Shown here: positions 27,262-27,477 of the stretch, one piece after another
Position numbering within the stretch: the first letter of the stretch is position 1
Layout of the letters: every line of letters starts with the position of its first letter
Assembly: GCF_041886205.1 (NCBI RefSeq)
Contig: NZ_CP169029.1
Source of the DNA: Escherichia coli
Lineage (GTDB): Bacteria > Pseudomonadota > Gammaproteobacteria > Enterobacterales > Enterobacteriaceae
Strand: one strand, 5' to 3'
DNA: 64,000 nucleotides
Notes under the pieces: model-generated
What the model saw: the letters and a program-made list of their open reading frames with translations, nothing else
Database searches by the model: none
Told to the model about the DNA's origin: nothing
Program-made: the position numbers and the translations under genes

Positions 27262-27477
27262 TCTGATGCCGCACGTAGGCCTGATAAGACGCGGACAGCG
27301 TCGCATCAGGCATCTTGTGCAAATGTCGGATGCGGCGTGAACGCCTTATCCGACCTACAAAAACAAATTTATCAATGAGTTAGAAATCCCTGTAGGCCTG
27401 ATAAGACGCGCCAGCGTCGCATCAGGCATCTTGTGCGAATGTCGGATGCGGCGAAAACGCCTTATCTGACCTACAGA
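27262..27477. repeat. BIME cluster (two tandem REP-pair units) between yacG and mutT
   Basis: Two copies of gtaggcctgataagacgcg…cagcgtcgcatcaggc plus tgtcggatgcggcg(tg/a)aacgccttatc(c/t)gacctaca. Confidence 0.8.

Follow-up and report, generated by a model that had tools for sequence, protein, structure and literature searches.

The DNA analysed here, a 64,000-nt stretch of the Escherichia coli chromosome referred to as the window, runs in the reading direction opposite to K-12 coordinates. Over the 901 bp from 27000 to 27900, identity is 100% with E. coli strains 504239 and TOK-001 and 99.1% with K-12 derivatives. In this region coaE, zapD and yacG lie on the plus strand and mutT and secA on the minus strand, and the 215-bp spacer between yacG and mutT (27256-27470; the MG1655 spacer, at 111434-111648, has the same length) is located at the shared 3' ends of the converging operons secM-secA-mutT and coaE-zapD-yacG. 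The original prediction held that this spacer is filled almost entirely by two REP-pair units starting at 27262. The content was borne out, as four REP hairpins and two full-length matches to the naRNA4 family (Rfam RF02564) were found; however, the REP array proper occupies 27275-27475, and position 27262 lies before it, in a 19-nt flank beside yacG. The features of the locus are as follows.

27058-27255, plus strand: yacG (DNA gyrase inhibitor), taken from the open reading frame list and named from the annotation in matching genomes; last gene of coaE-zapD-yacG, stop codon TGA at 27253-27255
27256-27274: 19-nt flank next to yacG, CATTTGTCTGATGCCGCAC, resembling a vestigial or truncated REP arm
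27275-27312, plus strand: Z2 REP no. 1, GTAG at 27275-27278, stem 27279-27311
27312-27324: 13-nt linker between Z2 no. 1 and Y no. 1, joining non-GTAG ends
27325-27358, minus strand: Y REP no. 1, stem 27325-27354, plus-strand CTAC at 27355-27358
27359-27391: 33-nt L-type linker between GTAG ends, with a perfect match to the IHF consensus, TATCAATGAGTTA, at 27370-27382
27392-27428, plus strand: Z2 REP no. 2, GTAG at 27392-27395, stem 27396-27427
27428-27440: 13-nt linker between Z2 no. 2 and Y no. 2
27441-27474, minus strand: Y REP no. 2, stem 27441-27470, GTAG at 27474-27471; supplies the mutT stop codon
27278-27355, minus strand: naRNA4-like module 1 (Y-linker-Z2 in the mutT sense), RF02564 positions 1-77, 78.4 bits
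27395-27471, minus strand: naRNA4-like module 2, RF02564 positions 1-77, 78.9 bits; begins at the G of the mutT UAG
27471-27860, minus strand: mutT (8-oxo-dGTP diphosphatase), 129 aa; last gene of its operon, after secM-secA

Read along the plus strand, the order of elements is GTAG-Z2, 13-nt linker, Y-CTAC, 33-nt linker, GTAG-Z2, 13-nt linker and Y-CTAC. Direct repeats run through the spacer at a distance of 116-117 bp: a 64-nt segment at 27296-27359 recurs at 27412-27475 with 94% identity, and a 19-nt segment at 27275-27293 recurs at 27392-27410 with 100% identity. All four REPs are imperfect palindromes of about 35-40 nt with a Y or Z2 consensus and a hairpin stem, and all four carry at the stem foot the GTAG (CTAC on the other strand) that is needed for recognition by TnpA-REP (PMC8266576). 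The 13-nt linkers have the length found in the naRNA4 model and a different sequence. The stem of Y no. 2 contains one A-C mismatch, which stems from T27467 and makes the hairpin next to the mutT stop a weaker one. In the 19-nt flank, the inverted pairs are formed by TGTCTGATGC and GCATCAGGCA, and the B2 allele has a better Z2 arm at this position.

The identity of the spacer as BIME DNA is secure. Both modules match RF02564 over its full length at E about 1e-14, above the gathering score of 59.5 bits, and predicted RNA structure is far stronger than in shuffled sequences on both strands (z = -5.6 and -6.4; equalled by 0 of 200 shuffles); chance is excluded by these two results. A consensus scan of the spacer revealed neither a promoter nor an intrinsic terminator. 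The K-12 RefSeq feature table lists no repeat feature at the yacG-mutT spacer, and a literature search for yacG, mutT and REP returned no report.

Several other elements in or near the spacer were noted or set aside. Short open reading frames running across the REPs, such as 27206-27340 and 27433-27699 (both on the plus strand), were taken as spurious, and a connection between gyrase inhibition by YacG and gyrase binding at BIMEs, for which there is no supporting evidence, was set aside as coincidence. Upstream of mutT, a full-length Rfam match to the Salmonella sRNA STnc40 was found at 27875-27944 on the minus strand (81.7 bits, threshold 45). It lies about 20 nt upstream of the mutT start, spans the secA stop codon and a strong hairpin with a T-run (GGCGCAGGATTCTGCGCC TTTTTT), and had been missed by the consensus terminator scan; by its position and hairpin, mutT sits behind an apparent secA terminator. 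Elsewhere in the window, PssrA ("Plasmid-encoded Shigella sRNA A") was matched on the chromosome at 33591-33680 on the minus strand (104.9 bits, threshold 69), which coordinate arithmetic places near the ftsA-ftsZ junction. The remaining Rfam matches, namely tp2 (15890-16003, plus strand), the leucine operon leader (55181-55330, plus strand) and SgrS (61310-61536, minus strand), fit the E. coli map position and are routine.

Class of the array and its counterpart between gcd and cueO

As summarised by Ton-Hoang et al. (2012, PMC3333891), a BIME-1 comprises one Y and one Z1 REP joined by a long L linker in which an IHF site is often found, and occurs in single copy; a BIME-2 joins Y and Z2 REPs through a short S linker and occurs in tandem copies; and an atypical BIME, in the Bachellier/Gilson classification, is a chimera of BIME-1 and BIME-2 parts in multiple copies. 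The array resembles a BIME-2 in that its Y and Z2 REPs alternate in orientation and its tandem copies vary in number between strains; however, its GTAG ends are separated by a 33-nt linker of the L type and not by a short S linker. It departs from BIME-1 in having Z2 REPs and a repeated pair, whereas its L linker contains, at 27370-27382, an exact match to the IHF consensus sequence. The succession Z2-short linker-Y-L-Z2-short linker-Y is that of an atypical BIME. Because Y and Z2 REPs are combined with a 33-nt linker that joins GTAG ends and bears an IHF consensus, the array is, as judged from its sequence, an atypical (chimeric) BIME made of two 77-nt Z2-linker-Y modules and a 33-nt L-type linker. 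Thus, the reading of the spacer as tandem BIME units was right as to REP/BIME DNA but does not hold for a plain BIME-2, since both Z REPs are of the Z2 type and the modules are joined by a long linker with an IHF consensus.

It was also considered that the second Z REP could be a Z1, which would make the centre of the array a true BIME-1. This was rejected by comparison with published Z1 and Z2 sequences (Durrant et al., PMC11208160): Z2 no. 2 reproduces the published Z2 query GCCTGATGCGACGCTGGCGCGTCTTATCAGGCCTAC exactly, and the only deviation in Z2 no. 1 is a loop one base longer than the consensus. The Y copies match GCCGGATGCGGCG with one mismatch. One property of REPs is absent, in that they are defined as strictly extragenic, whereas 4 nt of mutT (the G of codon 129 and the TAG) lie within the last Y REP, an overlap that reaches 13 nt in B2-type alleles. 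This departure is one of letter only, as the hairpin stem in the window lies outside the mutT frame.

A similar REP pair had been placed downstream of cueO at 108-205. This pair is real, but it is a canonical BIME-1 and is homologous to the centre of the array, not to a Z-Y unit. Its parts are listed below.

67-69: stop codon of gcd
105-207: BIME-1 between gcd and cueO, Y-linker-Z1, with the GTAG ends facing inward
108-141: Y REP of this element
154-166: IHF consensus, AATCAATGGATTG, within its L linker
177-206: Z1 REP of this element, with an exact IS621 target at 177-187
271-273: stop codon of cueO

The element, which has the single Y and Z1 of a BIME-1, aligns with the Y-linker-Z2 centre of the array at 27325-27428 with 83% column identity. 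Of 5,426 complete E. coli genomes, 2,745 carry this element, and the locus is 155 bp shorter in the others; presence or absence of BIME-1 between strains has already been described (PMC1187871). In strain OkiPb01712, IS621 was found at the GTAG of the Z1 REP of this element. The alignment of strain 23CRST012 breaks at position 179, the same point as in OkiPb01712.

Alternatively, the array could be a DNA-level site at which IHF binds the L linker and gyrase binds the Y/Z2 pairs, forming a topological barrier between the two converging operons, both actively transcribed. In agreement with this, a perfect WATCAANNNNTTR lies at the linker centre, as it does in the BIME-1 at 154-166; the pattern has five matches in the 64 kb, two of which are the centres of the two BIME linkers, and the L linker with its IHF consensus is kept in most Escherichia arrays. 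Furthermore, the literature describes L linkers bound by IHF, BIME-2 cleaved by gyrase and a role as insulator (PMC3333891, PMC1525189). However, most E. coli carry a single module and so have neither an L linker nor an IHF site at this locus, and one array from a cryptic clade has a degraded site, TATCTGTCAGTTA. We regard this protein-binding reading as unlikely.

The Rfam matches could also be read as a different role, in which read-through transcripts from mutT would be processed to 77-nt Y-linker-Z2 RNAs similar to naRNA4 that bind HU and help to condense the nucleoid, as in the original model (PMC4550694). Both modules are full-length matches, and the mutT-sense strand scores better than the opposite strand (78 versus 49-53 bits). 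In effect, however, the Rfam model describes Y-Z2 REP pairs in general, and a match to it demonstrates REP content only; in addition, the nucleoid role has been contradicted (bioRxiv 10.64898/2026.03.23.713779). A source of naRNA4-like sRNAs at this locus is accordingly very improbable.

The mutT stop codon within the terminal REP

The mutT stop codon TAG (27473-27471, minus strand) is the TAG of the GTAG of the terminal REP (27474-27471). The plus strand at 27470-27475 reads CCTACA, and the REP stem ends at 27470, immediately next to the stop; the predicted position of the stop codon inside the last REP was therefore correct, with the stem beginning at the very next base. A second in-frame stop codon, TAA, is present 9 nt downstream within the stem (TAG GTC AGA TAA; 27464-27462). 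In B2-type strains (such as APEC O1, CFT073 and Nissle 1917) the GTAG is changed to GTAT and MutT is read three codons into the stem, ending with GTG TAT GCC GGA TAA, to give a protein of 132 aa (…KRVYAG) in place of 129 aa (…KRL). The GTAT allele was found in 8 of 40 rows spread across the matches, corresponding to about a fifth of genomes, and another diverged allele also gives a 132-aa MutT, with TAG as its stop. By spread sampling, roughly one in five to one in four complete E. coli genomes encode a 132-aa form. The existence of 129- and 132-aa forms is explained by the REP consensus, which provides two in-frame stop codons 9 nt apart.

The arrangement was also compared in other species. 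In representatives of five Escherichia species, a Y REP directly follows the mutT stop codon in 5 of 5, with arrays of 1.7 to 5 modules, and in 2 of the 5 decay of the GTAG to TTAA has left a stop codon in place. As judged from these alignments, the MutT-adjacent REP predates the divergence of the Escherichia species, and the locus is a clean genus-wide case of a REP that supplies the stop codon of a gene together with a built-in back-up stop. Among 79 loci from Enterobacteriaceae representatives, the mutT-yacG spacer usually measures from -4 to about 60 bp. The stop of mutT often coincides with or directly adjoins a simple GC-rich hairpin, examples being Enterobacter, Kosakonia, Leclercia and Lelliottia; spacers with such a hairpin in other genera measure 23-60 bp. 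In several Citrobacter and Klebsiella species the stop codon has independently come to lie in a REP, either as the TAG of GTAG or as the TAA of the stem GGATAAGG. A separate observation concerns QXHL01000193.1, a 424-bp contig labelled Alicyclobacillaceae that encodes a Salmonella-like MutT with 80% identity to the query; this is most likely assembly contamination.

Module number and insertion sequences across genomes

The array was compared among 5,426 complete E. coli genomes. Alignment of alleles revealed one, two or three modules in E. coli, always with a Y REP adjoining mutT, and the array is thus a 116-bp tandem repeat that gains and loses modules. A 71-nt query covering the Y-L-Z2 junction was matched in 1,837 of the 5,426 genomes (34%), which thus have two modules or more; the matches fall at 1,879 places, which indicates that about 42 genomes have two junctions and therefore three modules. 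Single-module loci form the majority (about 53-55% of spread-sampled rows), and a diverged two-module allele that is invisible to the 71-nt query was seen in about 4 of 60 evenly spaced rows. The count obtained with a three-module query (2,554 genomes at >=80% coverage) was unusable: overlapping pieces are joined, so that two-module and probably some one-module loci reach 80%, and the query overcounts. The exact junction of the window, in which the second Z2 REP has GTAG, occurs in 507 genomes. TTAG takes its place in K-12 and in most of the other strains with two modules, and the K-12 copy consequently has no IS621 target and lacks the GTAG that TnpA-REP requires. Strain E89 carries a three-module allele with an extra 64-bp duplication that extends from the vestigial arm to the first Y REP. 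The duplication ends are GATGCCGCAC in the yacG-side flank and GATGCGGC in the left arm of the first Y REP, and their sequences point to microhomology between the vestigial REP arm and a live REP as the route by which the duplication arose. Altogether, REP content at this locus differs between strains, from one to three modules in E. coli and up to five in other Escherichia, and length differences between yacG and mutT should be read as repeat polymorphism and not as assembly error.

The locus was not contiguous in 286 genomes, and two insertion sequences account for 275 of these, leaving about 11. IS621 was present in 181 of the 5,426 genomes (3.3%), inserted between GTAG and GCC of the first Z2 REP; the inserted element is 1,279 bp long with the AG/CT core on both sides. 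The natural IS621 target is an 11-nt sequence, ATCAGGCCTAC, with a CT core that is recognised through a bridge RNA (PMC11208160), and exact targets in the window lie at 27275-27285 (where ATCAGGCCTAC is on the minus strand), at 27392-27402 and at 177-187. IS1397 was present in 94 genomes, including CFT073, Nissle 1917 and ATCC 25922, in the loop of a Z2 REP and with a GCCA duplication. Thus, IS621 inserts at the foot of the hairpin and IS1397 in its loop, and one or the other occupies the array in about 5% of E. coli genomes. The specificity of these elements for REPs and their loops has been reported, as has one earlier IS1397 copy in a REP of CFT073 (PMC1525189). The IS621 alleles are nearly identical to one another, and so are the IS1397 alleles; to judge from this uniformity, each element may represent a single old insertion and not repeated targeting. 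With two exact IS621 targets in the array and one of them filled in 3.3% of complete genomes, the locus is a possible natural benchmark site for IS621.

The REPs had been proposed as potential rearrangement points and as sites at which insertion sequences should be sought in related genomes. Insertions are indeed found, in the numbers given above for the array and in at least one genome for IS621 at gcd-cueO, and modules are gained and lost; however, the genes otherwise keep their order. Rearrangements on a larger scale were not observed, the order zapD-yacG-[array]-mutT-secA being kept in every genome inspected, and a contiguous or insertion-bearing locus was recovered in all but about 11 of 5,425 genomes. 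The stabilisation of mRNA and the binding of gyrase, also named in the prediction, are properties that the literature ascribes to BIMEs. Copy numbers that vary between strains, BIME-1 elements that some strains have and others lack, and REPs that are targeted by IS621 and IS1397 are all established BIME behaviour and already known.

This variability is what would be expected if the array were purely selfish or neutral repeat DNA, seeded and reshuffled by the REP-associated transposase (TnpA-REP/RAYT) and by recombination and tolerated where the ends of two operons meet, with an overlap at the mutT stop that is accidental and of no benefit to the host. Module number is free to vary from 1 to 5, the insertions are carried by whole lineages, and the gcd-cueO BIME-1 is present in about half of the genomes and absent from the rest. 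Moreover, the GTAG for TnpA-REP (PMC8266576) is intact in all four REPs of the window, and a spacer of -4 to 30 bp suffices in some related genera. In contrast, none of the five Escherichia species and no E. coli allele seen lacks the Y REP adjacent to mutT, this REP persists despite decay of its GTAG to TTAA or GTAT, and most related genera have a different hairpin at the same position relative to the stop. This pattern of conservation suggests that structure at the mutT stop is maintained, and we consider a purely selfish or neutral origin of the whole arrangement possible but doubtful. The range of one to five modules and the tolerated insertions indicate that the upstream modules are clearly dispensable, and they may be neutral passengers.

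Proposed function and relation to known systems

The locus is a resident REP/BIME array of the E. coli type that supplies the mutT stop codon, and in our assessment it probably acts as a two-way 3'-end element at the converging operons. A two-way 3'-end element is favoured because the spacer contains no intrinsic terminator, predicted structure is strong on both strands, other genera have a hairpin at the same site, and the REP literature describes comparable roles. In particular, REP325 has been described as a partly Rho-dependent terminator and mRNA stabiliser, and convergent gene pairs with REPs have higher expression; the same study found large variance from locus to locus, and terminal REPs without a general effect on half-life (bioRxiv 10.64898/2026.03.23.713779).

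According to this model of a two-way 3'-end element, hairpins would form on both transcripts and block 3' exonucleases, and they would also damp read-through of each operon into the other. The REPs would thereby replace the simple GC-rich hairpin that related genera have at the mutT stop. At mutT itself, the terminating ribosome would have to melt the hairpin that follows the UAG, and MutT output would probably be lower as a result, because the first hairpin starts at the base after UAG. Roles in termination, stabilisation and stalling are thus proposed for this array by its position, by predicted folding and by analogy with other REPs. It should be noted that when 251 nt of the mutT strand were folded, the minimum-energy structure paired the REPs with each other and did not consist of four local hairpins.

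A further idea, which we consider highly unlikely, is that the stop-adjacent REP sets the level of the antimutator MutT like a heritable dial. If it were true, natural alleles would lead to strain differences in MutT level and hence in the rate of A:T to C:G mutation. The candidate alleles would be a GTAG stop with an intact or a mismatched stem, a stem of which three codons are read, one to five modules, and IS621 or IS1397 at about 90 bp downstream. Leaving the dial aside, REP/BIME arrays have long been described, and the main value of the present analysis lies in the correct annotation of the locus.

Among known systems, the array is closest to the atypical BIMEs. It likewise has Y and Z2 REPs in inverted alternation, conserved tandem copies in a number that varies between strains, and an extragenic site at a 3' end; there is no essential difference, as the array combines BIME-2 REP types with a long linker in the style of BIME-1 that has an IHF consensus. 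Among BIME-1 elements (RIB/RIP), the one at 105-207 aligns with the centre of the array and has the IHF consensus at the same place, whereas BIME-1 elements carry a Z1 REP, form a single pair and are either present or absent; the array has Z2 REPs, is repeated and is flanked by more REPs.

The naRNA4 RNA is the 77-nt Y-linker-Z2 unit of REP325 (PMC4550694), and the REP325 array (yjdM-yjdN, RF02564) consists of the same 77-nt Y-13 nt-Z2 module, also in tandem and in a 3' untranslated region. In contrast to the two modules of the present array, REP325 has six, the 13-nt linkers differ in sequence, and its modules are separated by a "U" spacer and not by an L linker with an IHF consensus. REP325 also lies between tandem genes, whereas the yacG-mutT array lies between convergent genes.

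As for occupied insertion sites, the array has the exact targets and, in other strains, the occupancy that mark the natural REP sites of IS621 (IS110 family, bridge-RNA recombinase) and IS1397 (IS3 family); however, the array of the window strain itself carries no insertion sequence. Finally, Liang, Rudd and Deutscher (2015), as summarised in PMC12306157, reported that a REP located no more than 15 nt downstream of a stop codon causes ribosomes to stall and reduces translation. At mutT the stem starts at the base after UAG, within the <=15 nt of that rule and at a distance of 0 nt. Compared with the translation-damping REPs described in 2015, of which nrdAB is the example, the mutT REP additionally contributes the stop codon and an in-frame back-up stop, and a damping of MutT synthesis would be expected by analogy with them.
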